From assembly GCA_025922945.1 (NCBI GenBank), contig JAICGW010000003.1, forward strand, positions 1 to 51,749: a DNA stretch of 51,749 nucleotides, read 5' to 3'. The position numbers were made by a program, and so were the translations under genes. The DNA comes from Acidimicrobiia bacterium. GTDB taxonomy: Bacteria; Actinomycetota; Acidimicrobiia; Spongiisociales; ZC4RG35. The number at the start of each line of letters is the position of its first letter. Position 1 is the first letter of the stretch. The notes beneath the pieces are model-generated. The model was not told where the DNA came from. It was given only the letters and a program-made list of their open reading frames with translations, and ran no database searches. This document shows positions 16,360 through 51,749 of this stretch, piece by piece.

Positions 16360-17604
16360 ATGACAATGAGAGAAGCCTTTTTTGCGCTGAGCACCGACTG
16401 GAAAGAGGGGATCAACTGGGCCAACGTCAGGGAGTGGCGCCTCCGGCGGGCTCACGAGGCGATGGAGCGGCATGGGCTCGGCGCCTTGCTCTTGTTCTAC
16501 GACGAGAACATGCGGTACGTCTCCTCGACGCTGACTCCGGGTTGGAACCGACTCAAACCGGGACTGCGCTACGTGGTGTTGGCCAAGGGCAAGAAGCCGA
16601 TCGTGTACGAGCAGGGCGACATCGGCTTTCACCTTGAGGAGCACAACCCATGGATCCCCAAGGAGAACATCCGTTATTCCTACGCGTGGATCAAGGGAGC
16701 GGTCGGGCCGGCAGCCGAACAACAGGTGACGAAATTCGTCAACTCTCTGATGAGGGACCTCGAGGAAGCCGGGGTCGGTAAGGAGCCGCTGGGCGTCGAC
16801 TTCATCGACATCAACCTGATCAAGCAATTCGAAGCGAGAGGCATCACCTGGACCGACGGCATGTCACCGATGATGGAGGCGCGGGCGATCAAGAGCCCAG
16901 ATGAGATCAAGGCTTTCTCGATCGTTGGTGCCATTTGCGACTACGTCCACTACGAGATCACCAACTTCATCAAGCCCGGTCTCAGCGAGAACGAGGTGGC
17001 AGCCTTCGGGTTCGAGAAGCTGTACTCGCTACCTGGAATGGAAGACGTCGAGGACGTCATCGTCTCCTCCGGCCCCAATGCGTGGCCCAATTGGCGCAAC
17101 TTCTCCGACCGGATGATCCGGCCCGGCGAACTGGTCATCGTCGACCTCGCCGCCCTTACCTGGAACGGCTTCAAGTCCTGTGTCTACCGCACCTATTGCG
17201 TCGGGGGAGAGCCGAGCGACGAGCACAAGCAGACCTACGACTTGGCTCACAAGTGGCTCTGGGACTCGATCGAGGCAACCGGGCCGGGTGTCACCACCGC
17301 CGATGTCGCCTCCAAGTGGCCTTCGGCAAAGGAGGTATGGGGCTACGAAGAGGAGGACCAAGCGGCGGCGAACTTCTGGGGCCACGGCCTCGGCCTCGCC
17401 CAATACGATCCCCCGGTGATCTCCCGGATCTGGTCGCTTGACCACCCGGTGGAGATCCAACCCGGGATGACTTTCGCCCTGGAGACTCAGCACGGCAAGC
17501 TCCATGATCACGGTGTTCGGCTCGAGGAGATGCTCTACGTCACCGACACCGGGATCGAGATGGTGTCGAGCTATGCCAGCCACGAGATCATCACCGTCAA
17601 ATGA
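16360..17604 (+). CDS. M24 (Xaa-Pro peptidase/creatinase fold) hydrolase
   Basis: Creatinase-like N-domain; ARAIKSPDEI, GHGLGL, FALETQ, GVRLEE. Confidence 0.85.
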   Translation: MTMREAFFALSTDWKEGINWANVREWRLRRAHEAMERHGLGALLLFYDENMRYVSSTLTPGWNRLKPGLRYVVLAKGKKPIVYEQGDIGFHLEEHNPWIPKENIRYSYAWIKGAVGPAAEQQVTKFVNSLMRDLEEAGVGKEPLGVDFIDINLIKQFEARGITWTDGMSPMMEARAIKSPDEIKAFSIVGAICDYVHYEITNFIKPGLSENEVAAFGFEKLYSLPGMEDVEDVIVSSGPNAWPNWRNFSDRMIRPGELVIVDLAALTWNGFKSCVYRTYCVGGEPSDEHKQTYDLAHKWLWDSIEATGPGVTTADVASKWPSAKEVWGYEEEDQAAANFWGHGLGLAQYDPPVISRIWSLDHPVEIQPGMTFALETQHGKLHDHGVRLEEMLYVTDTGIEMVSSYASHEIITVK

Positions 17605-17611
17605 TCCGAGG

Positions 17612-18748
17612 TTGATCACCAGTCTCGACGAACCCTCGGCCGTCGATCCCGAACGAGTCGGCGCCAAGGCAGCGACGTTGGCCGCCGCCCGCCATGATGG
17701 ACTTCCGGTCCTCCCCGGGTTCGTCGTGGAGTCGTCCGCATCTCGACACCACCTGCAGCTCGGAGCATCGGTCCTGCCGGTGCGAGGTTCGGGTGGCGCC
17801 CGGCTGGCGGTGAGCTCGGAGCCCCTCGACGCCGCGGATCGAATCGTGGAGGCTGGGAGGGAGCTGTCGGCCACCCTGGCGGTCCGCTCCTCCAGTCCCC
17901 TCGAGTCGAGCGGGTACTGGGCCGGGGCCTTCACCTCTTATATAGGCATCACTCCCGAGGAGCTGCCCAAGGCGGTCGCCGGCTGCTGGGCCTCCGCCTT
18001 CTCCGTCGACGCCCTCGCCCGCCAGACCCACATTGGAATCGAACCCGGCACTGTGCCGATGGCGGTTCTGGTGCAGCCCGCGATCGATTTTGAGGTGGGG
18101 GGAGTCGCCGAGGTGTCCGCTGATGGGAGCCTTCGGGTTGAGGCATTGGCGGGATCTCCGGCTGGGTTGCTCCAGGGATGGGATCGGGGAGTGGTCGCCA
18201 CCAAGGGGGAGCGATGGGAGGGAGTCGAGGCCATCGCTCTCATCGGGGCCGAGACACTCAACGAGCTCGGGAAGATGCTCGAAATCGCCTGCGCGCGATA
18301 TGGCTATGACCGCTGCGAATGGGGCGTCGCCTCTTCGTTATGGATCCTTCAGCTACAGAAGATGGAAAAACGCGAACCAAGCGCCTGGGAGTCCACGCAG
18401 CTCGCGGCAATCGTTGCCCAGGGAGATCGACACCAGGGCATGCCCGTGGCGGCCGGGATCGGTATCGGCCCCCGGCATCATGTCGATGGAGCAGACCCGC
18501 AGGCGCCGCCAGTGGGCGCGGTGGTCACCGCCTCGTCGGCCCCACCGAGCTTGTCTCAACTGATCTGGGCCGCCGCCGGCCTCGTCACCGACCGCGGCAG
18601 CCCGGCCGCTCATGTGTTCGAGGCGGCGAGGTCGCTTGGTGTGCCGGCGGTGTGCGGTGTAGATCTCGGACCCGATGCCGATCAGATCGTCGCCGTCGAC
18701 GGTTACTCGGGCGTGGTGGCAACTCTTCCCGCTCAGCCGATCCCGTAG
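17612..18748 (+). CDS. Minimal PEP-synthase/PPDK-like phosphotransferase (ATP-grasp plus phosphohistidine domain)
   Basis: VGAKAATL, GLPVLPGF, LAVRSSS, MAVLVQP; C-terminal GLVTDRGSPAAHVFEAARSLGVPAV and VDGYSG. Start taken as TTG 17612. Confidence 0.75.
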   Translation: MITSLDEPSAVDPERVGAKAATLAAARHDGLPVLPGFVVESSASRHHLQLGASVLPVRGSGGARLAVSSEPLDAADRIVEAGRELSATLAVRSSSPLESSGYWAGAFTSYIGITPEELPKAVAGCWASAFSVDALARQTHIGIEPGTVPMAVLVQPAIDFEVGGVAEVSADGSLRVEALAGSPAGLLQGWDRGVVATKGERWEGVEAIALIGAETLNELGKMLEIACARYGYDRCEWGVASSLWILQLQKMEKREPSAWESTQLAAIVAQGDRHQGMPVAAGIGIGPRHHVDGADPQAPPVGAVVTASSAPPSLSQLIWAAAGLVTDRGSPAAHVFEAARSLGVPAVCGVDLGPDADQIVAVDGYSGVVATLPAQPIP

Positions 18749-19731
18749 AGCCGGGCGGCGTTGCCCCCGGAAATGGCGGCCCGGTCGTCATCGCTGAGAC
18801 CCTCGGTGGCCGCAACCAAACCCAGGGGATCGGTCTCGCTCATGTCGAAGGGATAGTCAGTGCCGAGGAGGACGTGGTCGGCTGCCACCACGTCGACCAG
18901 GTGGCGCAGATAGAGCGGCTGGAAGACGACGGTATCGAAGAAGAGCATCCGCATGTAATGACTGGGTGGTCGCTCCGGGATGCGGGTCCTGGTCTCGGGG
19001 CGCACCTCCCAGGTGTGGTCGGCCCGGGACGCGTAGAAGGGCAGATAACCACCCCCGTGGAGCAAGACCAGCTTGATCCCCGGATGCTCCTCGAATAGCC
19101 CGCTGAAGATCAGCCGGGTGGCGGCCACCATCGTCTCCAACGGATTGCCGATGCAATTGACCAGGAAATAGTCCCCGAGGCGCTGGCTTTCCGGATATCC
19201 ATTCGGGTGGAGGATGACCGGGATGCTCTTGGCCTCCACCGCCGCCCAGAACGGTCGGAAGCGGGGCTCGTCGAGGTTGGCGCCGTCGACCGTCCCTCCG
19301 ATTTGGAGTCCCTTGAACCCGAGCTGGTCGACCGCTCGGTCCATCTCGGCGATTGCCAGGTCGATGTCCTGCAGAGGCACGGTCGCCCCTAAGGCGACGA
19401 ACCGGTCCGGGTAACTGGCCACCGCCGCCGCCAGATTGTCGTTCTGGACCCGGGCCGACTCCGCCCCGATGCGTGCCGGCGCCCAGTAGAAGTACTCGGA
19501 AACGAAGGTGGAAAGGCCCTGGAGGTCGATGCCCATCCGGTCCATTGCCGCGAGCCGCACCGCCGGGTCAGTGAGAGCGGGAAGGATGCCGCCCACCATG
19601 GTGACGTTGTGGGCCACCGAGTCGGCGCCCATAAAATAGTCGTAGGGCTCGTGCTCGGGGCGGCGATGGGGCTCGACCGCCGTCCTGCTCGCCGGAGTGG
19701 CGAGATGGCTGTGGATGTCGATGGTGGTCAT
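18733..19731 (-). CDS. Amidohydrolase_2 family (ACMSD/LigW-like) enzyme
   Basis: IDIHSH, ILHP, HGGGYLP, FDTVV, LLGTDYPFDM. The 5' part of the 700-aa ORF is an antisense shadow. Confidence 0.88.
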   Translation of the reverse strand: MTTIDIHSHLATPASRTAVEPHRRPEHEPYDYFMGADSVAHNVTMVGGILPALTDPAVRLAAMDRMGIDLQGLSTFVSEYFYWAPARIGAESARVQNDNLAAAVASYPDRFVALGATVPLQDIDLAIAEMDRAVDQLGFKGLQIGGTVDGANLDEPRFRPFWAAVEAKSIPVILHPNGYPESQRLGDYFLVNCIGNPLETMVAATRLIFSGLFEEHPGIKLVLLHGGGYLPFYASRADHTWEVRPETRTRIPERPPSHYMRMLFFDTVVFQPLYLRHLVDVVAADHVLLGTDYPFDMSETDPLGLVAATEGLSDDDRAAISGGNAARLYGIG

Positions 19732-19794: not shown

Positions 19795-20676
19795 TTGAGA
19801 GTCGGCTTCATTGGACTCGGTGACATGGGTCAGGGGATCGTCCCCCGGTTGCTCGCTGCCGGCCACGAGGTCACCGGCTGGAACCGCACCGAGCCCAAGG
19901 CCCGCCCTCTGTTGGAACAGGGGATGACCTGGGCCGGCACACCCCGGGAAGTGGCGGCCGCATCCGAAGTGGTCTTCTCGATCGTCACCGACGGAGCGGC
20001 GGTGCGCGCAGTGGCGCTCGGGGACGATGGAGTGATCGCTGGCCTCAACTCGAGCTCGGTCTACCTCGACATGAGCACGATCGACCCGGAGGTGAGCCGG
20101 TCGATCAGCCGGGAGTTCGCGGCTGCCGGCTTGATCATGCTCGACGCCCCCATCTCGGGGAGCCCCGTCACTCTGGCCCAGGGCAGCGCCTCGACCATGG
20201 TCGGGGGCGACCGCGCCGCCTTCGAGCGGGTGGAGCCGCTGCTCTACGACATCGGCTCCAAGGTGAGCTACATCGGTGGGCCCGGAACCGCGGTCCAGAT
20301 GAAGGTGGCGGTCAACCTCACCCTGATCGTGGAGATGGTCGCCTTCTGCGAGTCGGTAGCACTGGCGGAGAGGGGTGGTGTCGCCCGCGAGGTCGCCGTC
20401 GACGCCATGTTGAAAAGCGTCGTGGCCTCGCCGGTGATGGGGTATCGGGGTCCCTTCATATTGGAGGGCGGGATGCCGGAGAAGCCGCTGGCCGATGTGA
20501 CCCTGCAGCAGAAGGACATGATCCTTGCTCTGGAGGTGGCCCGGCGGCAGGGCTCGCCGGCACCGCTGGCGGCCGTGGCCAACGAGCTGCTCAACGCTTG
20601 CCGCGGTCGTGGCATCGACCACCGCGACTTCGTCACGGTCTTTGACGTCTACCACCTGCTCAGCGGGATGTCGTGA
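19795..20676 (+). CDS. NAD(P)-dependent 3-hydroxyisobutyrate dehydrogenase family oxidoreductase
   Basis: VGFIGLGDMG, DMSTI, DAPISGS, MKVAVN, QKDM; TTG start at 19795. Confidence 0.9.
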   Translation: MRVGFIGLGDMGQGIVPRLLAAGHEVTGWNRTEPKARPLLEQGMTWAGTPREVAAASEVVFSIVTDGAAVRAVALGDDGVIAGLNSSSVYLDMSTIDPEVSRSISREFAAAGLIMLDAPISGSPVTLAQGSASTMVGGDRAAFERVEPLLYDIGSKVSYIGGPGTAVQMKVAVNLTLIVEMVAFCESVALAERGGVAREVAVDAMLKSVVASPVMGYRGPFILEGGMPEKPLADVTLQQKDMILALEVARRQGSPAPLAAVANELLNACRGRGIDHRDFVTVFDVYHLLSGMS

Positions 20677-21071
20677 TGGAGCCCTACCGCACCCGGCTCG
20701 AGGACGTTCCCCTGGTGAGCGGGCTTCGTCGGGACGAAGGCTGGGTAGACATGCAAGTCCAGTTCCTGGTGGACAAGCACGCCGCCGGCTCCGACGATTT
20801 TCTGCTCGGCTGGACCGTGCTGCCACCGCGAGCACGGCACGAACGCCATCGCCACCAACGAGCCGACGAGTTTTTCGTTGTCCTCCAGGGGGCGGGCATG
20901 GTGTACACGGACGCCGGTCGAGAGCGGGCGGAGAAGGGGGATGTGGTCTTCACCCCGCGGGGTCACTGGCACGGTTTTGACAACACCGGCTCTGAGGATG
21001 TTGTCCTGGTCTGGGGCTGGAGTGGGGCCGGGTCGCTCGAGGACGCCGGTTACGAAGCGGAAACCATGTGA
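20676..21071 (+). CDS. Cupin domain protein
   Basis: HERHRHQRADEFF and PRGHWH metal-site motifs. Confidence 0.85.
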   Translation: MEPYRTRLEDVPLVSGLRRDEGWVDMQVQFLVDKHAAGSDDFLLGWTVLPPRARHERHRHQRADEFFVVLQGAGMVYTDAGRERAEKGDVVFTPRGHWHGFDNTGSEDVVLVWGWSGAGSLEDAGYEAETM

Positions 21072-21754
21072 CGGTCTGGGACGACGCCTCCGTGCTGGAA
21101 GGCACCCGACGGATGCTGGATCGACGTGCGCGCCTCATCGAGGATGGTGAGCGTATGATCGGCTGGAAGCTTGCCTTCGGAGCTCCCGAGCGGCTTCGAC
21201 AATTCGGGCTCACCGGTCCGCTGGTCGGGTTCCTGGCGGAATCGAACGCAAAGTCGTCGGGGGCGGCGGTGTCCTGTCAAGGCTGGGTCCACCCGGTGGC
21301 CGAGCCCGAGATCGCCGTCTACCTGGGAAAGGACGTCGACGAGCCGGACCGAGTGGCGGAGTCGATCTCGGGTCTGGGGGCGGCGATCGAACTGGCTGAC
21401 GTCGACCCCCCACCGGAGGACCTCGGAGCTGTCCTCGAAGGCAACATCTTCCATCGAGCGGTGATCCTCGATCAGCCTGCCCATTCGCGTGCCGGTGGCA
21501 GCGTTGCCGGGATGCGAGCCCGGATCGCAAACAACGGAACCGAGATCGCCGACACCGCGGATCTCGAGGCATTGACCGGCAACCTGGTCTCCATCCTCGG
21601 CCATACCTCACGGCTGCTGCAATCGGCAGGCGCCCGGCTCCGAGCGGGGGAGGTGGTAATCGCGGGCTCGATCGTTCCGCCGATTCCGGTGCGACCAGGA
21701 GACGAGATCACATTCGAACTCGTCCCGCTGTCCCCGATCTCGGTGACCGTTTAG
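21068..21754 (+). CDS. 2-keto-4-pentenoate hydratase (MhpD)-like FAH-fold protein
   Basis: GWKLAF, AEPEIA, AAIELAD, LRAGEVVIAGS. Confidence 0.8.
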   Translation: MTVWDDASVLEGTRRMLDRRARLIEDGERMIGWKLAFGAPERLRQFGLTGPLVGFLAESNAKSSGAAVSCQGWVHPVAEPEIAVYLGKDVDEPDRVAESISGLGAAIELADVDPPPEDLGAVLEGNIFHRAVILDQPAHSRAGGSVAGMRARIANNGTEIADTADLEALTGNLVSILGHTSRLLQSAGARLRAGEVVIAGSIVPPIPVRPGDEITFELVPLSPISVTV

Positions 21755-22197
21755 AAACCCAGCGCGGGGTGGGTTGAGGTCGTCGCATCCCAGGCGGGTG
21801 CGCCGGTCTCGCTGATGTGGGGCCGATCGGCGGCGGTGACCCAGAATCCGACCAACGACGCCGGGATCTCGGGATGCGGGTTGAATGCCCGATGGACCAC
21901 CCCGATCGGTTCGGTGTAGACGTCGCCCGCCGAGTAGTGCTCGCTCCGTCCGTCGTACTGGAGAGAGATGAGGCCGCGCAGCAGGACGAAGTAGACGACA
22001 CCGTTGTGGATGTGCCAGGTCGCGGTCCCTCTTGGGTTGAGCTCCGAGAGCTGGATGTTGATCCGTGACTCTGGGTCGCGGGGGAGGCGGGTTTCGATTT
22101 CATCGAGGAGAACCTGACGTACGTGGTTGTCGCCCTCAGGTACCAGCCCGGTGGTTTGGAGCGCGAGTGTGGCGGGGTCGACGGTGAATCCGGTCAT
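21751..22197 (-). CDS. Cupin domain protein
   Basis: WHIHNG and AGDVYTEPIGVVH. Confidence 0.8.
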   Translation of the reverse strand: MTGFTVDPATLALQTTGLVPEGDNHVRQVLLDEIETRLPRDPESRINIQLSELNPRGTATWHIHNGVVYFVLLRGLISLQYDGRSEHYSAGDVYTEPIGVVHRAFNPHPEIPASLVGFWVTAADRPHISETGAPAWDATTSTHPALGF

Positions 22198-22792: not shown

Positions 22793-23290
22793 ATGAAGGC
22801 CGAAGTGATATCTGAGACCGCCAAGCTGTGGGAGGCCGAACCGGACAAGGCCAGGGGAACGCCCACGGTGAGGGCGCGTTCGGAGGGCGCTCTCGCAGTG
22901 ATGGAGGCCGGAACATTCTCCTGGCAGGCCGACCTTCCGTCCCCCCTCGGTGGGTCGAACCAGGCCCCCAGCCCCACGGCCCTCCTGCTGAGCGCTCTGG
23001 CAGGCTGTGCGGTGGTGTTCATCCGCGACACCCTTGGTCCCCAGCTGGGCGTGAGCATCGAGAGCGTCGAGGCGACTGCCTCATGTGAAGCCGACAGCCG
23101 GGGGCTGCTGGGCATGGAGGGGGCCGAACCCGACCTAGGGAACATCGGAATCGATATCCGAGTGGTTTCTCCGGATGGCGAGGACGGGGTCAACCGGGTT
23201 ATGGCCGCCTGGCAGGAGCGCTGCCCGATCTACCTATCCCTCATCAAGCCGATGGTCGTGAGGGTCGACTACGGCCTGGGGAACGCCTAG
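22793..23290 (+). CDS. OsmC/Ohr family protein
   Basis: ADLPSPLGG...PSPTALLLSALAGC...RCPI (two Cys); RBS GGAGG before ATG 22793. Confidence 0.85.
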   Translation: MKAEVISETAKLWEAEPDKARGTPTVRARSEGALAVMEAGTFSWQADLPSPLGGSNQAPSPTALLLSALAGCAVVFIRDTLGPQLGVSIESVEATASCEADSRGLLGMEGAEPDLGNIGIDIRVVSPDGEDGVNRVMAAWQERCPIYLSLIKPMVVRVDYGLGNA

Positions 23291-24648: not shown

Positions 24649-24934
24649 CTCCGTTTCATGCTTTGTCCGCCGGTCCGGCTCTCAGGTTAAGGACCCACTC
24701 GGCGCATAGCGTGGCCGTCAGAGATCGACATGACCATCCGCGCGATAACGGGCCAGAGATCGCGGAAGAACGTCGACCGCTCATGGCGCACCGATGTGCC
24801 GATCGGGTACGGGATATGGGCGGAACCACAACTGAATTGTTGATCTGGGACGGGAGTGTCGGTATTACTGGGGCTGGATTGCCCGGTTCAGTGGTCTTGG
24901 CCAGGACGATTACCTTTTCGTGCGGAGGTTTCTC

Positions 24935-28432: not shown

Positions 28433-28434
28433 TG

Positions 28435-33314: not shown

Positions 33315-33316
33315 TG

Positions 33317-42880: not shown

Positions 42881-42882
42881 AA

Positions 42883-43893: not shown

Positions 43894-43929
43894 GCTTCAG
43901 ACTTCCTTCGGCGAGGATCGGTAACGACC

Positions 43930-44006
43930 TGACAGTACCGCCGGACAGGAATTGTCCCGCCCGGCGGTGCGATGCACTCCGAGCACTTCGGGTGCAACTT
44001 CTGTCA
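43930..44006. promoter_or_regulatory. Structured intercistronic region after the substrate-binding protein gene
   Basis: Outer TGACAG/CTGTCA pair enclosing ACCGCCGG..CCGGCGGT and TGCAC..GTGCA stems. Confidence 0.5.
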
Positions 44007-44022
44007 TTGGATCCGAGCTACC

Positions 44023-45717
44023 TCACTTGCTGTAGAGCGCCCAGTACTGCGACGGCCGGGCCCACATCGGGTTCTCGACGTGACCCTGCACCCACTCACC
44101 GGATGCCGAGGGAGCGCCCTCGTTGGCCGGCATGATCCACATCGCCTCCTCGAAGAGAACGTTTTGGATCTCAGAGAGGATGCTCAGGCGCTCCTCTTCG
44201 TCCAGGGTGGTGCGAGCGGAGTTGATCAGAGTGTCGATCGCCTCGGGATCGGAGTAGCCGTCGACGAAGCTGTTGACCGCCCCGTACCTGCCGTCTGACA
44301 GTGCGCTGTCGAACAGGTAGGCGTCCGGCGTGCTGTATTGCGAGCTGGTGTACGACCACATCGCCACCGGCAAGGGGTCAGTCGCCAGAATCTCGTCGAA
44401 CTGTGCCTCCGGCACGGCCATCACATTGACATGAAAGTTCGGGTTAAGAGCTTCGATGCTGTCTTTCAGCGTCAGAGCGGCACCAGTGAACCCCTCGTGA
44501 GTTTGGTCGCTGGCTATGGAGATGGTGAATCCCTCATCCCAGTAACCGGCCTCGCGGAAGAGCTCCTCCGCCCGAGCCGGATCGGTCTCGTAAATCGGAG
44601 CATCGGGGTCGTACCCATACATCTCGACGGGGAGGATGAAGCTGTTACGACCACCGAGTCCGCCCAGGATCCCGTCGATCATGCCCTGGTAGTTGTAGGC
44701 ATAGTTAAAGGCTTGCCGTACCCGCACGTCCTGGAAGAAGTCGAGCGGGATGGTGTCGCCCTCGGGTAGGCAGTCCTCGCAGATGTTCATGTTCATGCCG
44801 ATCTGGAGCACCTGCAGGTCAAGGATGCTGGTGTCGACGACCGCGTGCTCGATAGGCTCGATCGAGGGCACGTCCGTGGGGCTGATGTCGACGATGTCGT
44901 ACTCCCTTGCCTGCAAACCGGTGGCCGGCGTGTCGACGATCAACTCCCAACGCACGGGCAGGTGGGCCGGCTCACCCCAATAGTCGGGGTTGATGTCGAA
45001 GGTCATGCGGTCACCGCGTTCCCAGGTGGCGAGGGTGTACGGACCGGTCCCCACCATGTTCTGGGCCATGAACTCGTTGGGCTGACCGGCGACCACGCCA
45101 CCGTTTGCTTCCACCGCGTCCTGGCTGACGACTGATGCCACTGGATGGGCAGCGAGGAAGGCGAGGAAGGAGGCGTCGACCTCGTTCAGGGTCACTTCGA
45201 AGGTGAGGTCGTCGACTACCCGGGTCTCGGCCACGTTCTCAAACAGTGGTGCCTGGCCTTCGGGAAGGTTCATCTCGACGACGCGATCCCACGAGTACTT
45301 GACGTCCTCGGCCGTCATGTCGGTGCCGTCGGAGAAGACCACGCCCTCCCGGAGCGGGAAGGTGTAGGTAAGCCCGTCCTCGGAGAGCAAGCCATTCTCC
45401 TGGCTCGGAACCTCGGTCGAAAGCTGCGGGATAACCGAACCGTCCTCCGCGTCAATGAAGACCAGCCGGTCGTAGACATTGAGGATGACGTCCATGCCGA
45501 CATCGTTCCCGTTGACGGCAGCGGGATCGAGGTTGAAGACGTCGTCGTTGACAGTGGCCACCAGCACGTCGGGGTTGGGCACGTCACCGGTACCTGCCGC
45601 CGCCGTCGTACCAGAGCTCGATGTCGTTTCGGTAGTCCCTGTGGCGCACGCCGATCCAACCAGCGTGAGGACGGCGCATAAGGCCAATATCCTCGCCGCA
45701 AACGATTTTCGTCCCAT
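44023..45717 (-). CDS. Family 5 ABC substrate-binding lipoprotein
   Basis: Lipobox VGSAC, LDPA, YTFPLREGVVFSDG, VGTGPY, VRVRQA; RBS GGAGG before ATG 45717. Confidence 0.92.
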   Translation of the reverse strand: MGRKSFAARILALCAVLTLVGSACATGTTETTSSSGTTAAAGTGDVPNPDVLVATVNDDVFNLDPAAVNGNDVGMDVILNVYDRLVFIDAEDGSVIPQLSTEVPSQENGLLSEDGLTYTFPLREGVVFSDGTDMTAEDVKYSWDRVVEMNLPEGQAPLFENVAETRVVDDLTFEVTLNEVDASFLAFLAAHPVASVVSQDAVEANGGVVAGQPNEFMAQNMVGTGPYTLATWERGDRMTFDINPDYWGEPAHLPVRWELIVDTPATGLQAREYDIVDISPTDVPSIEPIEHAVVDTSILDLQVLQIGMNMNICEDCLPEGDTIPLDFFQDVRVRQAFNYAYNYQGMIDGILGGLGGRNSFILPVEMYGYDPDAPIYETDPARAEELFREAGYWDEGFTISIASDQTHEGFTGAALTLKDSIEALNPNFHVNVMAVPEAQFDEILATDPLPVAMWSYTSSQYSTPDAYLFDSALSDGRYGAVNSFVDGYSDPEAIDTLINSARTTLDEEERLSILSEIQNVLFEEAMWIMPANEGAPSASGEWVQGHVENPMWARPSQYWALYSK

Positions 45718-45763
45718 GGGAGGCCTCCTCAAATTGTCTCCAGACGAGCGGGCTCGATCGCCA

Positions 45764-45834: not shown

Positions 45835-46983
45835 TCAGCCGATGCGGCCCAGTCCCCGGGGGAAGTCATGGAGGGAGCGGTGCCCGTTTTGAGTTACCGC
45901 AACGAGATGCCCGGTCTGTACTCCGGCCCGTTCGTCGGTGGTGATGACGTTGGGCTGGATGACCAATGCCATGCCCTCCTCGAGTGTGAGGTCGGGTATG
46001 GGCAGGTTGGGGCGGCTCTTGGCCCCTAGGACCGGCGGCAGGTACCCACCGCCATAGCCATGAACAAGGTCGTCATAAATGGTGAACCCCATCTCTTCGA
46101 TGACTGCCGATGCCTCGACCAGGTCGGCGGCATGGGCGCCGGGACGAATTGCGGCGGCGATGGCATCGAAGGCGGCGTCGGCCGCCCGATGGAGGTCAAC
46201 GAATAGCGGCGTCGGGTCGGCGTTGATGCTGAAGGTCCGCAATACCTGGGCGGCATACCCCCAGTAGGCGGCGCTGATCTCGCAGAAGAGGATGTCACCG
46301 GCTTGCAGTCGCCGGGTCGACTGGAACTGGGACGGAACGCACTTGTTGGGATCGTTCATCGAGGTGACGGCGAAGTAGTGGATGTGGTTGGTGCCGCCCT
46401 CGGCCAGGTAGGCACCTTCGACAATCGCCGCCAACTGCCGCTCATCCATCCCGATTTCGACCTGGTCGACCAGGGCGGCGACCGCCTGATCGGAGAGCCG
46501 GGCAGCCACCTCCAGTCGCGCGATTTCCTCCTTTGACTTGATCAGCCGCAGTCGTTGGTACTCGGCATCCAGTTCGACCAACTCCCCCACTGCGCTCGCC
46601 AATCGCAAATGACTTCGGTGACGTAGGGGTCCCAATACTCCGACCCGCTGACCCGGCCCAACCCGAGCCCGAAGCAGCTCTTCGACGCGGGCGATGGTCG
46701 AGGGCCCGCCCCATTCCACCTCGCAGTCGGAGGCGATGGTGCGCGCATTGGGCAGATGGTTGTAATGCTGCACGAAGAGGCGCGGTGTCTCCTCGGGCGT
46801 GAACAGCAGGGCGGCTTCGGTGGTAACCGGCCAGTCGGTCAGCCAGGGGACGGCGGACCCGACGCGCTCGGCGCCATAAGCCAGGAGATGCGAAACTCCG
46901 GCGCCCTCCATCAGCTCGACGATCTTCTGGCGCCGTCCGACGAGCTCTTCCTGGCTGAATTTCGGATAGAGGTTTTCGGTCAT
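45835..46983 (-). CDS. M24 fold protein with degenerate metal site
   Basis: RLIKSKEEI, EISAAYWGYAAQVLRT, VHGYG, VIQPNV. Confidence 0.82.
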   Translation of the reverse strand: MTENLYPKFSQEELVGRRQKIVELMEGAGVSHLLAYGAERVGSAVPWLTDWPVTTEAALLFTPEETPRLFVQHYNHLPNARTIASDCEVEWGGPSTIARVEELLRARVGPGQRVGVLGPLRHRSHLRLASAVGELVELDAEYQRLRLIKSKEEIARLEVAARLSDQAVAALVDQVEIGMDERQLAAIVEGAYLAEGGTNHIHYFAVTSMNDPNKCVPSQFQSTRRLQAGDILFCEISAAYWGYAAQVLRTFSINADPTPLFVDLHRAADAAFDAIAAAIRPGAHAADLVEASAVIEEMGFTIYDDLVHGYGGGYLPPVLGAKSRPNLPIPDLTLEEGMALVIQPNVITTDERAGVQTGHLVAVTQNGHRSLHDFPRGLGRIG

Positions 46984-49108: not shown

Positions 49109-50083
49109 ATGACATCCAGGGCGAAAGAAATTGCCTTTGAGAAGGTGAGAGGGCTCTGGATCGCGATTCCCACCCCGTTCACCTCGGCCGGAGAGACCGA
49201 CGAGGGGGCACTGCGCAAGTCGGTCGACTACTACATCGAGGGCCTGGCGGTCGATGGCATCTTCTGCGGGGGAGTCATGGGCGAGTTCTGGGCGATGACT
49301 ACCGAAGAGCGAGCTTTGGTGCACGAGCTCGTGGTGAATGCCGCCGCCGGGAGGGTGCCGATCATGGTCCACATCGGTCACCACACCTACTCGGAGGCGG
49401 CGCAACTGAGCCGTCACGCCGAGCAGATCGGAGCCGATTTCGCCATCGCGATCAATCCCTACTTTCCGATCAAGCCCTCCGATGAGATCGTGCGCGACTG
49501 GTACCGGCGTCTGACGGCCGAGTCGTCGATCCCCTTCTTTCTCTTCAACACCTCTTATTCCGGATACGCCTTGAGCCCTGGGCTGATCGCCGAGCTCGCC
49601 AACCTGGAGACGGTGTGCGGGATCAAGAACCCGAAACCGAGGGAACATCTCCTGCGCGTCCAGGACCTGGTGGGAGACAAGATCGTTGTTTGTGACGCCG
49701 ACGAGGCCGACTGGCTGGAGCTTCATCTGGATCACGGTTTTCAATCCCTCATGTCGACCCCGGCGCTGGCCATGTACCAGACCCCGGACAAACGACCCAT
49801 CCACGACTACACGCGGCTGGCCGACAGCGGCGACACCGCGGGCGCCTGGGCCCTGCATGGCACCCTCGAGCGGGAGCGGGATGCGTTCGGGCGTTGGATG
49901 CGGGACAGCTGGCTCGCCCGGGGCGAGGGCGCAATTCCCATTGCCGAACTCAAGACTTGGCTCGCCTTGATGGGTCTGCCGCAGGGCCCGGTGCGACCGC
50001 CTCTGATTTCGCTCAGCGAGGCGCGGACCGAGGCTCTGCGCGCCGACCTGGATGGCTTGGGCCTGCTCGATTCGCTCTCATGA
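49109..50083 (+). CDS. DapA/DHDPS-family aldolase-like protein
   Basis: IPTPF, GVMGEFWAMTTEER, NPYF, VCGIKN, GPVRPP; RBS GAGGAGG. Confidence 0.87.
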   Translation: MTSRAKEIAFEKVRGLWIAIPTPFTSAGETDEGALRKSVDYYIEGLAVDGIFCGGVMGEFWAMTTEERALVHELVVNAAAGRVPIMVHIGHHTYSEAAQLSRHAEQIGADFAIAINPYFPIKPSDEIVRDWYRRLTAESSIPFFLFNTSYSGYALSPGLIAELANLETVCGIKNPKPREHLLRVQDLVGDKIVVCDADEADWLELHLDHGFQSLMSTPALAMYQTPDKRPIHDYTRLADSGDTAGAWALHGTLERERDAFGRWMRDSWLARGEGAIPIAELKTWLALMGLPQGPVRPPLISLSEARTEALRADLDGLGLLDSLS

Positions 50084-50102
50084 TCAAGAGACGGAGGAAC
50101 TC

Positions 50103-51377
50103 GTGACGTCGACCGATATTGACTTCAAGGACGCCGCCGGCCAGATGCATACCGAGGCCTTCGGGGCCATCGCCAACTCGCCGTGGTACTCCGACGCGGT
50201 CTACGAGCGATTCTCCGATGCCGAGTACCAACGTCGGTTCGACGCCACCCGAGCGAAAATGAAGCGGCTCGGCCTCGACGTCCTCATCGCATCCGGTGGG
50301 CCAAATCATTGGAGCTGGGGCGGGGGAATGCGCTGGCTGAGCAACCACTGGGAATGGCATGGGATCTCGGCCTATGTCGTGGTGCCCCCGGAAGGGGAGC
50401 CGGTCCTGATCTGCGGGCCCGGTGGCGCCCATCGCGAGGCGGTGCGCCGCGCCACCCCGCTAAAAGATGTGCGCCACTCCCGCTGGGGCCGCTCGGGCGA
50501 TGTGATCGTCGAGCTGATCAAGGAGTGGGGACTGGCCGACGCCACCGTCGGCATCTCCCATGTCGATCCCGTATATGGCCACCATCTGCCGGTGGACGAA
50601 TGGGAGCGTCTCCGGGAGGGCTTGCCCGAGGCCAAGTTGGAGCGGGTGGGGGACTTCTTCCATGAACTTGTCCATACCAAGAGCCCGGAGGAGATCGAAT
50701 GCGTTCGCCAGGCCGGGAAGCTGATGGACCAGGCCTTCGAGGCCATGATCGCCGCTGCCCGTCCCGGAGTCACCGAGTATCAGCTCGCCGCGGCCGCCAC
50801 CCACGCGGTCATGGAAGGTGGTGGCCAGATGGATTTCAACATCATCGGGTCGACGCGGATGGATGAGCCGGGGATGGTGTTCGGCAATCCGTGGCCGTCG
50901 AGCCGTCGCCTTGCGAAGGGCGACATCATCATCAATGAGCTGGCTTGCGGCTACAACGGATACTCGGTGCAAATCGGCGGCCCTATATGCATCGGGGAGC
51001 CACCCTCGTGGATTCGTGAATTCTTCGACGAGGTGGTGCTGCCGGGCTACGACCTCATGGCGGAACAACTCATCGGGGGCAACAGCTGGGACGACGTGAT
51101 GAAGGCCAGTCAGTTCTTCCGGGACAAGGGATACGACTCCCGACCCCTCTTCCTTCATTGCATCGACTTCACCAGCCACACCCCGCACGTGATGTGGGAC
51201 CACGTGGTGGCCGAGGACAACGAGCTCGATCTCGTCCCGGGAATAGTTGCGATGCTGGAGCCAACCATCATCACCCCCGACGGATTGCTCGGGATTTTCT
51301 TTGGACGAACCTATGTCCTCACCGACGGCGGGCACGAACAGGTGACGAAGTTCCCCCACGAGCTGGTCGTGACCTGA
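50103..51377 (+). CDS. M24 fold protein with degenerate metal site
   Basis: TKSPEEIE, ARPGVTE, NELACGYNGYSVQ, MLEPT; RBS GGAGG before GTG 50103. Confidence 0.82.
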   Translation: MTSTDIDFKDAAGQMHTEAFGAIANSPWYSDAVYERFSDAEYQRRFDATRAKMKRLGLDVLIASGGPNHWSWGGGMRWLSNHWEWHGISAYVVVPPEGEPVLICGPGGAHREAVRRATPLKDVRHSRWGRSGDVIVELIKEWGLADATVGISHVDPVYGHHLPVDEWERLREGLPEAKLERVGDFFHELVHTKSPEEIECVRQAGKLMDQAFEAMIAAARPGVTEYQLAAAATHAVMEGGGQMDFNIIGSTRMDEPGMVFGNPWPSSRRLAKGDIIINELACGYNGYSVQIGGPICIGEPPSWIREFFDEVVLPGYDLMAEQLIGGNSWDDVMKASQFFRDKGYDSRPLFLHCIDFTSHTPHVMWDHVVAEDNELDLVPGIVAMLEPTIITPDGLLGIFFGRTYVLTDGGHEQVTKFPHELVVT

Positions 51378-51493
51378 CCCCCTCGGCCCTTCGGGCCACT
51401 CCCCCCAACACTCGCTTCGCTCGTTGGGGGGAGAAACAGCATTCGGGTTTCTCCCCCCGTAGGGGGGAGAGCCGGCGCAGCCCGGGAGGGGGG
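51378..51493. repeat. REP-like multi-hairpin intergenic element
   Basis: GGCCC-TTC-GGGCC, CTCCCCCCAAC..GTTGGGGGGAG and TCTCCCCC..GGGGGAGA stems between convergent genes. Confidence 0.65.
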
Positions 51494-51505
51494 AGAAGCC
51501 GCTCG

Positions 51506-51749
51506 CTAGCTTCCGAGCTTGTTCGCCAGCCAGCGGAAAGTGGCCGGGGCCCAGTGGTTGAAATGCTTGAAGGCGCAGTGCCCGTCATCGGGGTAGATGC
51601 GAGCTTCTTTGCCGGTGGCAGGGCCGGTCTCGAGCATGAAATAGATGTTGCCGATCGGCGCCAGATGGTCGAGCTTGCCGTTGATCATCAGCACCGGCAT
51701 GGTGATGTTGTCGAGGATCCCTTGCTCGGAGAGCGCCCACCGGGAGAAG
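51506..51749 (-). CDS. Alpha/beta hydrolase, C-terminal part (runs off the right edge)
   Basis: ITMPVLMINGKLDHLAP (catalytic Asp region) and YPDDGHCA (His). Confidence 0.75.
   Translation of the reverse strand, partial: FSRWALSEQGILDNITMPVLMINGKLDHLAPIGNIYFMLETGPATGKEARIYPDDGHCAFKHFNHWAPATFRWLANKLGS

Follow-up and report, generated by a model that had tools for sequence, protein, structure and literature searches.

An uncultured soil Acidimicrobiia bacterium carries what we judge, on balance, to be a genuine, modular accessory catabolic island of ~54 kb and ~50 genes, the larger part of which lies at 16360-51749 of the window, and for which a mechanism can be proposed. At its centre is an uncharacterised branch of the peptidase-like M24 family in which the metal site has been lost. 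The window, i.e., the 51,749-nt stretch of DNA analyzed here, is the whole of MAG contig C3. The initial annotation took 16360-51749 as one block. The block is real, but its true start is ~650 nt further left, at a RibD_C gene, and on the right, where extension of the contig had been proposed, the island continues for 18 kb past the window on contig C45. In full, it begins with the RibD_C gene at 15.7 kb, runs past the right end of the window, takes in C45 and ends where contig C53 starts. The leftmost gene is:

15721..16323, plus strand: RibD_C-family reductase (Pfam RibD_C, 77.7 bits)

It lies between the stop codon of a TadE-like gene (15693) and M24a; the empty sites of the same-genus genomes G009 and G010 do not have it. 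At the other end, the window has an exact 141-nt overlap with the end of C45; C45[1-212] and the reverse complement of C53[1-210] differ by two mismatches and a 2-nt indel, and the passage from C53 into C45 is spanned by a contig of a relative (G005:C186, 93-94% DNA identity). The C45 genes are in the order found after M24c in L020, L022, L023, L025, L035, L045 and G068. The borders are not marked by an integrase, transposase, tRNA or direct repeat, and G+C is uniform. Outside the pathway is an intergenic repeat that recurs 26 more times on 20 other contigs of this genome and is still more frequent across the genus:

51378..51505, no strand: ~60-nt palindromic repeat, two copies (repeat matches in the genome)

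Three Peptidase_M24 genes had been annotated, and Pfam finds all three:

16360..17604, plus strand: M24a, DddP-like M24 protein (PF00557, 115 bits)
45835..46983, minus strand: M24b, M24-fold protein, core gene (alignment to prolidase 1pv9)
50052..51377, plus strand: M24c (Pfam; ligand columns E, Q, F, E, G)

M24a keeps three of the five canonical metal ligands (D, C, A, E, E); it scores 107 bits against the DddP model (cut-off 600) and, by our tally, has DNA matches in ~28 of 79 other family genomes. M24b, aligned to 1pv9, keeps none of the five (E235, Q246, G312, Q343, G358), and these columns do not vary among 11 orthologues and paralogues or among 69 of 69 full-length subfamily representatives. 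Judged by these alignments, the canonical metal ligands are missing from both M24b and M24c, which are members of a large M24 subfamily that is uncharacterised.

The island is accessory: some soil Acidimicrobiia have it and close relatives do not. Of the 10 other genomes of the genus (all genomes used are MAGs), G001, G002, G005, G006 and G007 gave long syntenic DNA matches, and G003, G004, G008, G009 and G010 short paralogue or repeat matches only; presence in G001 and non-detection in G003 rest on unpublished genomes, without which the genus divides four with and four without. Two genomes have a clean empty site, with flanks abutting within 44-250 bp: in G010:C1 the Tad flank runs as far as 66988 and the C53 homologue sets in at 66944, and G009:C67 has a gap of 248 nt. 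In another genus, G068:C9 has 41 island genes in collinear order, with a mean protein identity of 83.5% (60-93%) and a left flank different from that of the source genome; its M24b is broken by a stop or frameshift, and M24b is found in one of three genomes of that genus. Because the island identity in G068 is well above ValRS (56%) and GyrB (75%), lateral transfer is suggested, on an argument from three housekeeping genes of one genome; the third of them, RecA, at 83% does not fall below the island mean. For the same-genus G002 the figures are 88, 97 and 94% for ValRS, GyrB and RecA, and 91% for the island mean.

Co-occurrence of the core in other genomes, proposed earlier as a check, was borne out: besides the collinear copy, island genes are shuffled yet linked in G056:C4 (40-124 kb) and in L026, L033, L029 and L030. 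Farther afield it is partial: roughly half of the longer metagenome contigs show it, as does one haloarchaeal plasmid. Among 37 metagenome loci of at least 6 kb, anchored on the M24b subfamily, HIBADH-type genes occur in 9, a second M24 in 7, FrsA-like genes in ~7, Amidohydro_2 in 5, Mo-hydroxylase genes in 4-5 and propellers in 4, and ~17 have no island family beside the M24b homologue. The 21-kb locus L024 has an M24b 83% identical and no other island gene. On the Haloarcula plasmid, an M24 gene sharing the site signature has as its neighbours genes for an abh2-like hydrolase, an ABC importer and a quinone reductase, together with two Amidohydro_2-like genes.

The smallest recurring core is ten genes: the F420-type LLM, DppABCDF, M24b, a FrsA/Ayg1/DHPON-type alpha/beta hydrolase, a CrtI-like flavoprotein and a CocE/NonD hydrolase. 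This compact form is seen in L032, L036, L042 and L043, and in L036 unrelated genes bound it. Core genes in the window, other than M24b, are:

27584..28438, minus strand: F420-dependent LLM-class oxidoreductase (TIGR03560, 267 bits; cut-off 231 passed)
29452..32081, plus strand: DppD and DppF, Dpp/Opp-type importer ATPases (ABC_tran and oligo_HPY)
41951..45732, minus strand: DppC, DppB and lipoprotein substrate-binding DppA (two BPD_transp_1, SBP_bac_5)
51509..51749, minus strand: C-terminal end of abh3, FrsA/Ayg1/DHPON-hydrolase-like alpha/beta hydrolase (Pfam FrsA-like)

In 11 of 29 loci the LLM gene and the M24b orthologue are neighbours. The importer genes are split here; in compact relatives DppDF is contiguous with DppABC and M24b. 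The best PDB matches of DppA are 5u4o, YliB/GsiB and DppA (103-116 bits), and a lipobox was seen by eye. The alpha/beta hydrolase was correctly listed, but the window holds only its last 240 nt; the remainder is on C45, across the 141-nt overlap, and its PDB matches are Ayg1-like (79 bits) and 2jbw (50 bits).

Around the importer the island is a set of modules, not one operon. Pfam and NCBIfam upheld the gene list of the initial annotation for 16360-51749, from the creatininase, Amidohydro_2, OCD and dehydrogenase genes to the Dpp-type importer, the EamA, TauE and MFS exporters and one LacI. Outside that list are the PEP-utilising/PPDK_N protein, OsmC, the MerR-adenylate cyclase, a second adenylate cyclase and the flavin amine oxidase. 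One module joins M24a to the following genes:

17504..18748, plus strand: PEP-utilising-type protein, part PPDK_N plus swivel His domain (PF01326, PF00391); probably starts later than 17504
18733..19722, minus strand: AH2a, ACMSD-like Amidohydro_2 decarboxylase-family protein (PF04909, 147 bits)
19798..20676, plus strand: HIBADH-type beta-hydroxyacid dehydrogenase (NAD_binding_2, NAD_binding_11)
20673..21071, plus strand: cupA, small monocupin (Cupin_2, 65.7 bits)
21068..21754, plus strand: MhpD/DmpH-like FAH-fold hydratase or decarboxylase (FAA_hydrolase, 33 bits)

No paralogue of the PEP-utilising-type protein was found in the genome. AH2a best matches ACMSD in the PDB (192 bits), then LigW and gamma-resorcylate decarboxylases. 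The HIBADH-type protein scores 189 bits against the tartronate-semialdehyde reductase model (cut-off 341), the MhpD/DmpH-like protein 57 against DmpH (cut-off 350), and cupA had no 3-HAO match at E<=0.1. The HIBADH-cupA-MhpD trio again adjoins M24b-subfamily genes in L077, L121 and L152.

Two modules are headed by LacI regulators, of which the whole island has two; in each, a dehydrogenase is accompanied by a creatininase-family hydrolase and by either a cupin or a SnoaL protein. The one in the window (32838..36273) travels with Dpp and M24b in L026, L033 and L045:

32838-33314, minus strand: SnoaL (Pfam)
33317-34369, minus strand: Zn-ADH (Pfam; IolM model 213 bits vs 450)
34366-35196, minus strand: creatininase-family hydrolase (Pfam)
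35233-36273, minus strand: LacI (Pfam)

The creatininase-family protein falls below the cut-offs for creatininase (90 vs 235 bits), MftE (87 vs 172) and IolN (44 vs 245); by eye it has E-x-H, D and H-E motifs, which we take to be the creatininase metal-ligand motifs. Three further modules are an LVIVD propeller with an ACMSD-like decarboxylase, an OCD with a DapA-like gene, and a second DapA-like gene with M24c:

37247-38491, plus strand: LVIVD beta-propeller, no obvious signal peptide (Pfam)
38511-39515, plus strand: AH2b, ACMSD-like Amidohydro_2 (Pfam; best PDB match ACMSD, 206 bits)
40802..41947, plus strand: threonine-synthase-like PLP enzyme, N-terminal CxxC...CxxC (PRK08197, 449 bits; cut-off 303 passed)
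46980-47987, minus strand: OCD/mu-crystallin-family protein, stop-to-start overlap with M24b (Pfam)
47990-~49000, minus strand: DapAm, DHDPS-like (Pfam)
49100-50083, plus strand: DapAp, DHDPS-like (Pfam, PDB matches)

The propeller-AH2b pair is kept in G002, G068 and G056, and analogous M24, Amidohydro_2 and propeller sets occur in L089, L093, L104 and L119. The best PDB match of OCD is the Pyr2C reductase 6t3e (128 bits); OCD-DapAm is absent from G002, G006 and G007 and adjacent in G056, where the PLP enzyme also joins to form an M24c-ThrC-DapAp unit. Against TIGR00260 the PLP enzyme scores 104 bits and thrC on C101 215 bits; by its sequence it is a threonine-synthase paralogue and not the housekeeping thrC. 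The remaining genes are:

21751..22197, minus strand: cupB, small monocupin (Cupin_2, 44 bits)
22886..23290, plus strand: OsmC-like protein (PF02566; extent from the L011 orthologue)
23428..24648, plus strand: MerR-adenylate cyclase fusion (MerR_1, Ad_Cy_reg, Guanylate_cyc)
24920..26329, plus strand: flavin amine oxidase (Amino_oxidase, 247 bits)
26718..27584, minus strand: EamA-family permease (PF00892; extent from orthologues)
28435..29286, minus strand: FAH-family hydrolase, Rv2993c/HpaG-like (FAA_hydrolase, 251 bits)
32090..32830, minus strand: TauE/SafE-family permease (PF01925)
36270..37157, minus strand: class III adenylate cyclase, LipJ C-terminal-like (Guanylate_cyc)
39465..40769, minus strand: MFS_3 transporter, EntS-like (Pfam; EntS model 248 bits, cut-off 324)

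The MerR-cyclase and flavin amine oxidase are one insertion specific to the source genome, with no syntenic copy among the other 10 genomes of the genus. The class III cyclase, with 12 paralogous matches in the genome and absent from G068, L026 and L045, is probably a passenger. FAH is absent from G002, G006, G007 and G068.

As to mechanism, we infer the pathway logic from enzyme families throughout. The importer would take up one or several small carboxylated N-containing compounds (peptide-like, opine-like, or (hetero)aromatic acids); an N-heterocyclic or amidine compound, the substrate named in the initial annotation, is possible. M24b and M24c, with no dinuclear metal site, would probably hydrolyze a non-peptide C-N bond. 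Dehydrogenases would give keto or diketo intermediates, the carbon skeleton would be cut by ACMSD-type decarboxylases, FAH-fold enzymes and alpha/beta C-C hydrolases, and imino and keto acids would enter central metabolism via the OCD, DapA-like and HIBADH enzymes. A catabolic role is argued for by the substrate-binding-protein-dependent importer and two LacI repressors, and because Pfam scans of the window and C45 gave no match to NRPS, PKS or terpene core genes. The description of the genes as dominated by C-N hydrolase folds over-reads the data, and is interpretation rather than observation: both Amidohydro_2 proteins are nearest ACMSD and other non-oxidative decarboxylases, and for the FrsA-like hydrolases the closest matches are two C-C hydrolases, Ayg1 and 2,6-dihydroxy-pseudo-oxynicotine hydrolase.

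Nor is a single hydrolytic ring-opening pathway supported: gene-level indels between species and the two LacI regulators point to several modules. OCD-DapAm, FAH, HIBADH-cupin-MhpD-cupin, ThrC-MFS and the cyclases have been gained or lost between species, a turnover as compatible with several unrelated pathways as with a single one. On regulation, a palindrome scan found one candidate, between the divergent FAH and DppD genes:

29369..29390, no strand: 22-nt LacI-type palindrome GTTAAGCAATCGATTGCCTAAC

No other site in the 2.56-Mb genome matches it with <=1 mismatch. G002 and G005 both conserve the palindrome, which may be a LacI-type operator. The scan and genome site search found no further such operators, and a single one therefore gives no support for a common regulon.

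Overall, the earlier interpretation is partly supported, and its view that no described route matches stands: none of the core enzymes has a close orthologue among characterised enzymes. With NCBIfam, no island enzyme reaches the equivalog cut-off of any characterised pathway; two matches pass a cut-off, one to a generic F420-LLM subfamily and the other to a 'threonine synthase' model, and the best PDB matches of island enzymes are 56-206 bits. In keeping with the initial annotation, no Rieske or ring-hydroxylating oxygenase match was found among the scanned ORFs of the window and C45. In membership tests, the island qualifies for none of the ectoine, creatinine, hydroxyproline, picolinate and inositol routes. 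Rejection of ectoine catabolism was right, and the fold-II PLP enzyme here differs from that of the ectoine route in being, by sequence, a threonine-synthase paralogue rather than EutB-like.

The window is contig C3 in its entirety, from a metagenome-assembled genome (MAG; here G000) of 2.56 Mb in 179 contigs, 94.6% complete. Gene content was taken from Pfam and NCBIfam scans of long open reading frames (ORFs; at least about 110 aa for Pfam), and these scans bore out the genes that the initial annotation had listed at 16360-51749. That annotation had also proposed that the contig be extended rightward; when this was done, the block proceeded through a second contig of the same genome, C45, to its border with a third, C53. 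The genes were as follows.

Genes of the block in the window and on contig C45 (Pfam and NCBIfam scans)
16360-17604 (+): M24a, first of three Peptidase_M24 genes
18733-19722 (-): AH2a, first of two Amidohydro_2 genes
29.5-32.1 kb: DppDF, one part of a split Dpp-type ABC importer
38511-39515 (+): AH2b, second Amidohydro_2 gene
41.9-45.7 kb: DppCBA, the other part of the importer
45835-46983 (-): M24b, Peptidase_M24
50052-51377 (+): M24c, Peptidase_M24
16360-51749, hydrolase-type, in addition: one creatininase-family gene
16360-51749, redox and imine families: OCD/mu-crystallin, F420-class LLM (TIGR03560, above cut-off), HIBADH-type and Zn-dependent dehydrogenases
16360-51749, keto-acid families: two DHDPS-like genes (DapAm and DapAp), one FAH, one MhpD/DmpH-like
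16360-51749, remaining genes listed: two cupins, SnoaL, an LVIVD propeller, EamA, TauE and MFS permeases, one LacI
C45, after the end of C3: rest of abh3 (a FrsA-like alpha/beta hydrolase straddling the two contigs), a CrtI/CrtO-like flavoprotein, a CocE/NonD hydrolase
C45, next: second FrsA-like hydrolase, GFO/IDH/MocA dehydrogenase, cupin, second creatininase-family gene
C45, further: 2-hydroxyacid dehydrogenase, second GFO gene, Mo-hydroxylase large subunit
C45, far part: MDR quinone-reductase-like gene, S9/DLH-like hydrolase, second HIBADH, second LacI, second CocE/NonD

Five further genes were missing from the earlier list: a flavin amine oxidase, OsmC, a PEP-utilising-type protein and two cyclases, one of them a MerR-adenylate cyclase. 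For the PEP-utilising-type gene, the longest ORF (from 17504) runs 100 nt into the end of M24a (17504-17604), so that translation probably begins further downstream; its product has only part of the PPDK_N ATP-grasp, while the histidine motif of the swivel domain is retained. LipJ-like class III adenylate cyclase genes lie at 36270-37157 and 23428-24648, and the family has 12 matches in the genome. The PLP enzyme of the window is threonine-synthase-like; because the canonical thrC is on contig C101, this gene is taken to be a paralogue, and a housekeeping threonine synthase was ruled out. The first 15.7 kb of the window have no relation to the island and carry a histidine kinase with Roadblock and small GTPase genes, ValRS and Tad pilus genes. 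At 438-4621 a large HATPase_c protein is followed by a Roadblock/LC7 gene and a small ATP_bind_1 GTPase-like gene, a set which we take to resemble the MglA/MglB-type or 'conservon'-type sets of Actinomycetota.

The final 141 nt of C3 match the end of C45 exactly. At its other end C45 has 210 nt in common with the start of C53, apart from 2 mismatches and a 2-nt indel. The gene order of C45 after M24c is shared with six public loci and with G068, a genome of another genus of the family, and in the closest relative, G005 (93-94% DNA identity), one contig bridges C53 into C45. At this right border G005 (locus L074, G005:C186, 6254-7906) has an extra PHO4 phosphate transporter beside a DUF47 (PhoU_div) gene; the 1.4-kb PHO4 stretch is absent from the G000 assembly, where the DUF47 gene straddles the break (C53:1-287 / C45:1-134).

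Ten other genomes of the genus were searched at the DNA level for island sequence. Long syntenic matches were found in G001, G002, G005, G006 and G007, and only short paralogue or repeat matches in G003, G004, G008, G009 and G010 (98, 56, 69, 93 and 96% complete, respectively). G001 and G003 are unpublished genomes; without them, four genomes have the island and four do not. The empty site was found in two of the latter, with the Tad flank separated from the C53 homologue by 44 nt in G010:C1 and by 248 nt in G009:C67. These two genomes show the block to be accessory, polymorphic for presence and with its flanks abutting where it is missing. Given the empty sites, the island extends from just after 15693 to just upstream of the last CocE/NonD gene of C45, a length of about 54 kb with about 50 genes. 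The start of 16360 in the initial annotation was at most 650 nt from the true left edge and left out a RibD_C gene at 15721.

No integrase or transposase was found in the Pfam scans (ORFs of at least about 110 aa), no tRNA in a tRNA search, and no direct repeats at the junctions on inspection by eye. G+C is 0.61-0.66 throughout the window and the island's composition is that of its flanks; a foreign origin judged by composition was rejected, the G+C being flat. At 51378-51505 a G+C-rich, palindromic repeat unit of about 60 nt with the core TCTCCCCCCGTAGGGGGGAGA occurs twice in succession. Its family is intergenic, with 26 further matches on 20 other G000 contigs and many in every genome of the genus, and the G010 empty site bears one copy of the palindromic unit. 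The G002, G006 and G007 contigs all break at or beside the cyclase copy at 36.3-37.2 kb, so the cyclase family probably fragments these assemblies. G005 has, in place of the 90-nt spacer between cyclase and LVIVD genes, a different stretch of at least 1.8 kb that encodes a DUF222 protein (L014, G005:C107, 25-1230; L015, G005:C122, 1-556). DUF222 often accompanies HNH endonuclease domains.

In G068, 41 island genes are collinear on one 126-kb contig (public record L045), from the far CocE/NonD gene to M24a. This block is without FAH, OsmC, the cyclases, the amine oxidase, MFS and the ThrC-like gene, and its flank past M24a is unrelated to the window's flank. The 41 G068 proteins have a mean identity of 83.5% with those of G000, against 56% for ValRS, 75% for GyrB and 83% for RecA; the corresponding values for G002, of the same genus as G000, are 91% for the island and 88, 97 and 94% for the three markers. 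M24b is present in one of the three genomes of G068's genus. The comparison, of three markers in one genome, suggests that the island has moved between lineages. The G068 orthologue of M24b (G068:C9:77780-78782; L063, 5781-6783; L045, 10001-11003) consists of two overlapping parts with an intervening TGA, which marks either a pseudogene or a sequencing error. In G056, from a third genus, orthologues at 48-88% identity lie inside about 85 kb in a quite different order, with arrangements such as M24c-ThrC-DapAp and DapAm-OCD adjoining a CrtI-like gene. Of the family's 79 other genomes, 23 gave an M24b orthologue with 52% identity or more (14 of 38 genera, that of G000 included), and about 28 gave M24a DNA by row tally.

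Neighbours were counted in 29 public loci with an M24b orthologue at 67-97% identity. Beside M24b stood Dpp genes in 21 of the 29, abh3 in 17, LLM in 11, OCD in 7, M24c in 7, and the LacI-creatininase-ADH module and the second creatininase set in 3 each. Four loci (L032, L036, L042 and L043) have a compact form consisting of LLM, a divergent DppA-B-C-D-F-M24b run, and convergent abh3, CrtI-like and CocE/NonD genes. Unrelated genes enclose this ten-gene unit in L036: an ABC-2 transporter with a two-component system at one end, and araA with a sugar ABC transporter at the other. Because the importer is contiguous in the compact loci, the window's split importer is read as a rearranged form of one operon. 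A counter-example is L024, in which M24b is 83% identical and no other island gene lies within 10 kb. The initial annotation had looked to genome neighbourhoods for a conserved core, and the genes do co-occur elsewhere, collinear in G068 and shuffled in G056 and the compact loci. In L027, L031, L034, L037, L044 and L047 LLM and M24b are separated by a solitary DppD-like ATPase gene, with DppA, B, C and F absent nearby; this gene may be left over from the importer operon. M24b orthologues at 70-88% identity also occur on ten public MAG contigs (L023, L031, L034, L036, L037, L041-L044 and L047) whose titles read 'uncultured Acidobacteriota bacterium'; the neighbourhoods are like those of Acidimicrobiia MAGs, and the content of these bins does not seem to agree with their phylum label.

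When metagenomes were scanned with a 10-sequence alignment of the M24b subfamily, 80 loci at 46-81% identity were obtained, and the 37 of at least 6 kb were analysed. Beside the M24b homologue were found a HIBADH-type gene (9/37), a second M24 (7/37), a FrsA-like hydrolase (about 7/37), Amidohydro_2 (5/37), Mo-hydroxylase parts (4-5/37) and an LVIVD or SGL propeller (4/37); further neighbours were SDR, cupin, CN_hydrolase, FAH and LLM. Transporters in these loci varied (TctC, TRAP, Liv-type, OpuAC), and about 17 of the 37 had none of these families beside the homologue. A plasmid collection searched with M24b gave three records only, all haloarchaeal. One of these, a Haloarcula megaplasmid, encodes an M24 protein 33% identical to M24b and with the same site signature; beside it are two Amidohydro_2-like genes and genes for a quinone reductase, an abh2-like hydrolase and an ABC importer.

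When M24b was aligned to the prolidase structure 1pv9, E, Q, G, Q and G were found at the five metal-ligand positions, none of them canonical. The ligands of the 1pv9 dinuclear centre are, we take it, those numbered D209, D220, H284, E313 and E327. The corresponding columns, as read from MAFFT alignments only, are E, Q, F, E and G in M24c (1 of 5 ligands) and D, C, A, E and E in M24a, and none of the three proteins has the five ligands of an M24 metallopeptidase (prolidase or aminopeptidase P). No change in the ligand columns of M24b was seen in 11 relatives. Among 1.8 billion representatives searched, at least 172 clusters (50% identity) reached E ≤ 1e-30 with M24b. All 69 full-length representatives among the best 150 clusters keep the first-position E, H308 and the last-position G, and 68 of the 69 keep the second-position Q; the signature of this metal-ligand-free M24 subfamily is E..Q..H..x..Q/E..G. 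Given these conserved substitutions, M24b and M24c are placed in a sizeable subfamily that, as predicted from its residues, cannot bind the usual dinuclear centre. Against structures, the profile of the subfamily (M24b plus M24c) scored 120 bits with prolidases, 75.6 with creatinase 1chm (full length) and 68 with DoeA. The ESM Atlas, searched with M24b, returned only clusters generically named 'M24 family metallopeptidase'.

The strongest match of the island to any characterised enzyme was that of the two Amidohydro_2 proteins to human ACMSD (AH2b, 206 bits, residues 4-325; AH2a, 192 bits, residues 51-328). Bacterial ACMSD followed at 151-158 bits, then LigW, gamma-RSD and IDCase; 2,3-dihydroxybenzoate and uracil-5-carboxylate decarboxylases are named among the matches. 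By full-length similarity both fall within the ACMSD family (Amidohydro_2) of non-oxidative decarboxylases, an assignment that does not imply the substrate. Both are thus decarboxylase-like, and a reading as amide hydrolases was rejected. The C-C hydrolases nearest to abh3 are Ayg1 and 2,6-dihydroxy-pseudo-oxynicotine (DHPON) hydrolase. The creatininase-family proteins are equally distant from the creatininase, MftE and IolN models, and by eye their sequences show E-x-H, D and H-E motifs, presumably the metal-ligand motifs of that family. DppA is a lipoprotein whose nearest relatives bind dipeptide and glutathione.

LacI-type palindromes were sought in 17 intergenic stretches and across the whole genome; one good site was found, at 29369-29390 between FAH and DppD, and it is kept only in G002 and G005 and in none of the compact relatives. 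With a single site found, a shared operator was rejected as an argument for tying the modules together. No riboswitch or other RNA reached gathering score in the window and C45.

Most probably, the genes of the island import and degrade one or more small carboxylated nitrogen compounds. As we infer the route, the non-metallo M24 proteins would carry out a hydrolysis, dehydrogenations would follow, the ACMSD-type enzymes would decarboxylate, FAH-fold and alpha/beta hydrolases would hydrolyse C-C bonds, and OCD, DapA-like and HIBADH enzymes would process imino and keto acids. The initial annotation had seen here an orphan catabolic system, and that part of its reading stands, as no known pathway fits and the genes cluster elsewhere; its emphasis on C-N hydrolases and on a single hydrolytic ring-opening pathway is not supported, given the ACMSD-like Amidohydro_2 proteins and the module indels. 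It is possible, and we propose it tentatively, that the metal-ligand-free M24 subfamily is the signature enzyme of an undescribed route common to Actinomycetota, other soil bacteria and haloarchaea. It would catalyse a non-peptidase reaction, and its partners would be beta-hydroxyacid dehydrogenases, beta-propellers, C-C hydrolases of the FrsA/Ayg1 type and decarboxylases of the ACMSD type. The route would act on some common nitrogen compound, carboxylated and either cyclic or (hetero)aromatic, and the Acidimicrobiia island would be a laterally exchanged, expanded version of it. Conceivable substrates are pyridine-dicarboxylates, or cyclic imino-dicarboxylates handled through OCD-type imine reductases and DapA-like retro-aldolases.

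The pathway originally envisaged, a single orphan route that opens an N-heterocyclic or amidine ring hydrolytically (for example a pyridine-carboxylate, or an ectoine- or creatinine-like cyclic amidine or guanidine), is rather unlikely. M24b and M24c share the lack of the peptidase metal site with, presumably, creatinase, an amidinohydrolase, and the island has two creatininase-family genes. The extension adds a Mo-hydroxylase large subunit and DHPON-hydrolase-like hydrolases, and CN_hydrolase, Mo-hydroxylase and Fer2_2 lie beside M24b homologues in the metagenome loci L081, L084, L088 and L100. Further, PicC of picolinate catabolism is among the ACMSD-family decarboxylases (10.1101/457895; 10.1101/530550). 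However, the specific models all fail (DoeA 42-50 bits against a cut-off of 613, creatininase 84-90 against 235, EutB and EutC below cut-off), the Mo subunit is nearest glyceraldehyde dehydrogenase alpha (599 bits against 790) with no small or medium subunit beside it on C45, and maleate isomerase, a NicX/PicD-type dioxygenase and amidase were unmatched in the Pfam scans. Whole modules are also gained or lost between species.

LacI-controlled oxidation of sugars or cyclitols would account for the two LacI genes, each adjoining a dehydrogenase and creatininase-family pair. Here GFO/IDH/MocA, Zn-ADH, 2-hydroxyacid and HIBADH dehydrogenases would form diketones for the creatininase-family (IolN-like), FAH and alpha/beta hydrolases, with M24, OCD and PLP enzymes serving amino- or guanidino-substituted variants. 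The best NCBIfam name for the ADH is scyllo-inosose 3-dehydrogenase IolM (213 bits), the creatininase-family pair touches IolN (44-47), the two GFO proteins are nearest IolG (106-135) and FAH is nearest diketo-deoxy-rhamnonate hydrolase (189). These scores are far under the cut-offs of 450, 245, 355 and 500, though, and no sugar kinase, isomerase, glycosidase or IolE/IolD-type gene was matched. Since, in addition, the importer's binding protein is nearest the dipeptide/glutathione class and the Amidohydro_2 proteins are ACMSD-like rather than lactonase-like, we consider such a role improbable.

A further possibility was that the island is no functional unit, its small unrelated operons being together by descent in an essential-poor stretch and kept or lost jointly through large deletions. 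Several regulators, mixed strands, passengers such as adenylate cyclases and OsmC, and module-level indels fit this idea, and M24a and M24b are separable: 18 of the 79 other family genomes have both, 10 M24a alone and 5 M24b alone, and the two are on different contigs in G100. Against it, the families re-associate after heavy shuffling in G056, L026, L029, L030, L033 and the compact form, in metagenomes at 46-57% identity with differing transporter types, and on a haloarchaeal plasmid; the importer parts, 10 kb apart in the window, form one operon with M24b in relatives. Mainly because the families recur with altered order and transporters, the island is judged to be at least partly a functional unit rather than a frozen accident, and the absence of any unit is likewise improbable. 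Uptake and breakdown of proline or hydroxyproline peptides (Dpp, M24 'prolidases', CocE/NonD X-Pro peptidases, an OCD-family delta1-pyrroline-2-carboxylate (Pyr2C) reductase and a DapA-like Pyr4H2C deaminase) is very improbable: although the structures nearest M24b and M24c are archaeal prolidases (56-120 bits), that nearest OCD is the Pyr2C reductase 6t3e (128 bits), Peptidase_S15/PepX_C domains occur in the extension and DppA is nearest dipeptide binders, the loss of the prolidase ligands is invariant across the subfamily, a search of the whole genome (94.6% complete) found no proline-racemase-family gene, the LhpI model gave 61 bits against a cut-off of 400, and neither a D-amino-acid nor a hydroxyproline dehydrogenase was recognised.

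In soil, Acidimicrobiia are abundant; their genomes are small, and hardly any of them have been cultured. The 54-kb block is 2% of the G000 genome and is gained or lost as a unit, so the island likely defines the diet of some of these organisms. The island makes three subjects accessible to study: a large M24 subfamily with no assigned function that, by its predicted site, cannot be a metallopeptidase; the way in which this subfamily recurs with C-C hydrolases and ACMSD-like decarboxylases, both in several bacterial settings and on a haloarchaeal plasmid; and what appears to be the exchange of an island among uncultured bacteria of different genera in which no mobility genes are recognised. 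Identification of the substrate would allow about 50 genes now named only by family to be annotated, and could guide the choice of growth substrate for cultivation.

None of the known systems compared, i.e., ectoine, creatinine, hydroxyproline, picolinate-type, the ACMSD lower pathway and Thermotoga inositol, fits the island. A biosynthetic cluster was rejected; no core synthase was matched, and an importer and repressors are present. The ectoine cluster (EutD/DoeA, EutE/DoeB, EutABC, EnuR) likewise has M24-fold, OCD-family and fold-II PLP enzymes by an importer, and its M24-fold hydrolase acts on a non-peptide C-N bond. In the island, by contrast, the PLP enzyme is threonine-synthase-like and the regulators are LacI, not of the MocR/GabR type. 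With the EutD/DoeA models (TIGR02993, cut-off 613; NF038259, 575) M24a scored 42 and 31, M24b 50 and 40, and M24c 48 and 51 bits, and the EutB models gave 41-52 bits against 413 and EutC 129 against 472. EutE, which we take to belong to the AstE_AspA family, had been noted as missing in the initial annotation, and PF04952 indeed had no match anywhere in G000 (94.6% complete). Ectoine clusters are defined by juxtaposed eutD and eutE, and all 363 known are proteobacterial (PMC8739950). The creatinine-creatine-sarcosine pathway resembles the island in having creatininase-family and creatinase-fold proteins (M24 with a Creatinase_N-type N-domain) in one region. The island differs in that there is no sarcosine oxidase set, the creatininase-family and M24 genes are apart, and the window and C45 copies score 89.9 and 83.5 bits with the creatininase equivalog TIGR04448 (cut-off 235). 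The M24b/M24c profile matches creatinase 1chm over its full length (76 bits), with prolidases scoring higher (120).

The island and extension share with picolinate degradation Amidohydro_2 decarboxylase-like genes (PicC presumably being an Amidohydro_2 enzyme), alpha/beta hydrolases, cupins and a Mo-hydroxylase large subunit. The pic cluster (PicA-G) of Alcaligenes faecalis encodes a Mo-dependent dehydrogenase, the decarboxylase PicC, a ring-cleaving dioxygenase, a deformylase and an amidohydrolase (10.1101/530550). Pfam scans of the island and C45 gave no three-subunit Mo enzyme, four-component monooxygenase, 2,5-dihydroxypyridine dioxygenase, maleate isomerase or amidase, so that the likeness is confined to a lone large-subunit homologue and the Amidohydro_2 genes; the latter are nearest ACMSD, unlike in pic, and the M24, OCD, DapA-like and creatininase-family genes have no counterpart there. 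The island resembles the ACMSD branch of the kynurenine, 2-nitrobenzoate and 2-aminophenol routes in its two full-length ACMSD matches (192-206 bits), one from a gene adjoining a cupin and a DmpH/MhpD-like FAH-fold protein. None of the three island cupins matched the 3-hydroxyanthranilate dioxygenase (3-HAO) family at E ≤ 0.1, aldehyde dehydrogenase and aminomuconate deaminase were absent from the island Pfam scans, and DmpH/DmpE models gave 50-57 bits against cut-offs of 350-409.

Bacterial and archaeal hydroxyproline catabolism uses a proline-racemase-family enzyme, an OCD-family Pyr2C reductase and a DapA-like Pyr4H2C deaminase. The island has an OCD-family gene, nearest Pyr2C reductase, that overlaps a DapA-like gene after M24 and the Dpp importer. 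It differs in that its M24 proteins are without the prolidase metal site, PF05544 (proline racemase) has no match in G000 (94.6% complete), and the Pyr2C reductase equivalogs fall short (LhpI 61 bits against 400; PRK06141 149 against 322). With the IolG, IolM and IolN set of what we take to be the Thermotoga inositol pathway, the ADH reached 213 bits against 450 for IolM and the creatininase-family proteins 44 and 47 against 245 for IolN. As a genetic element, the block differs from catabolic islands of cultivated bacteria, such as the clc- and bph-type integrative elements, in that no integrase, conjugation genes, tRNA target or flanking repeats were found and in a composition equal to that of its flanks. 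It resembles them in being a large set of accessory catabolic genes that congeners can lack cleanly and that shows signs of having passed between lineages. In sum, the block is a catabolic genomic island, a known kind, built around an uncharacterised enzyme subfamily.
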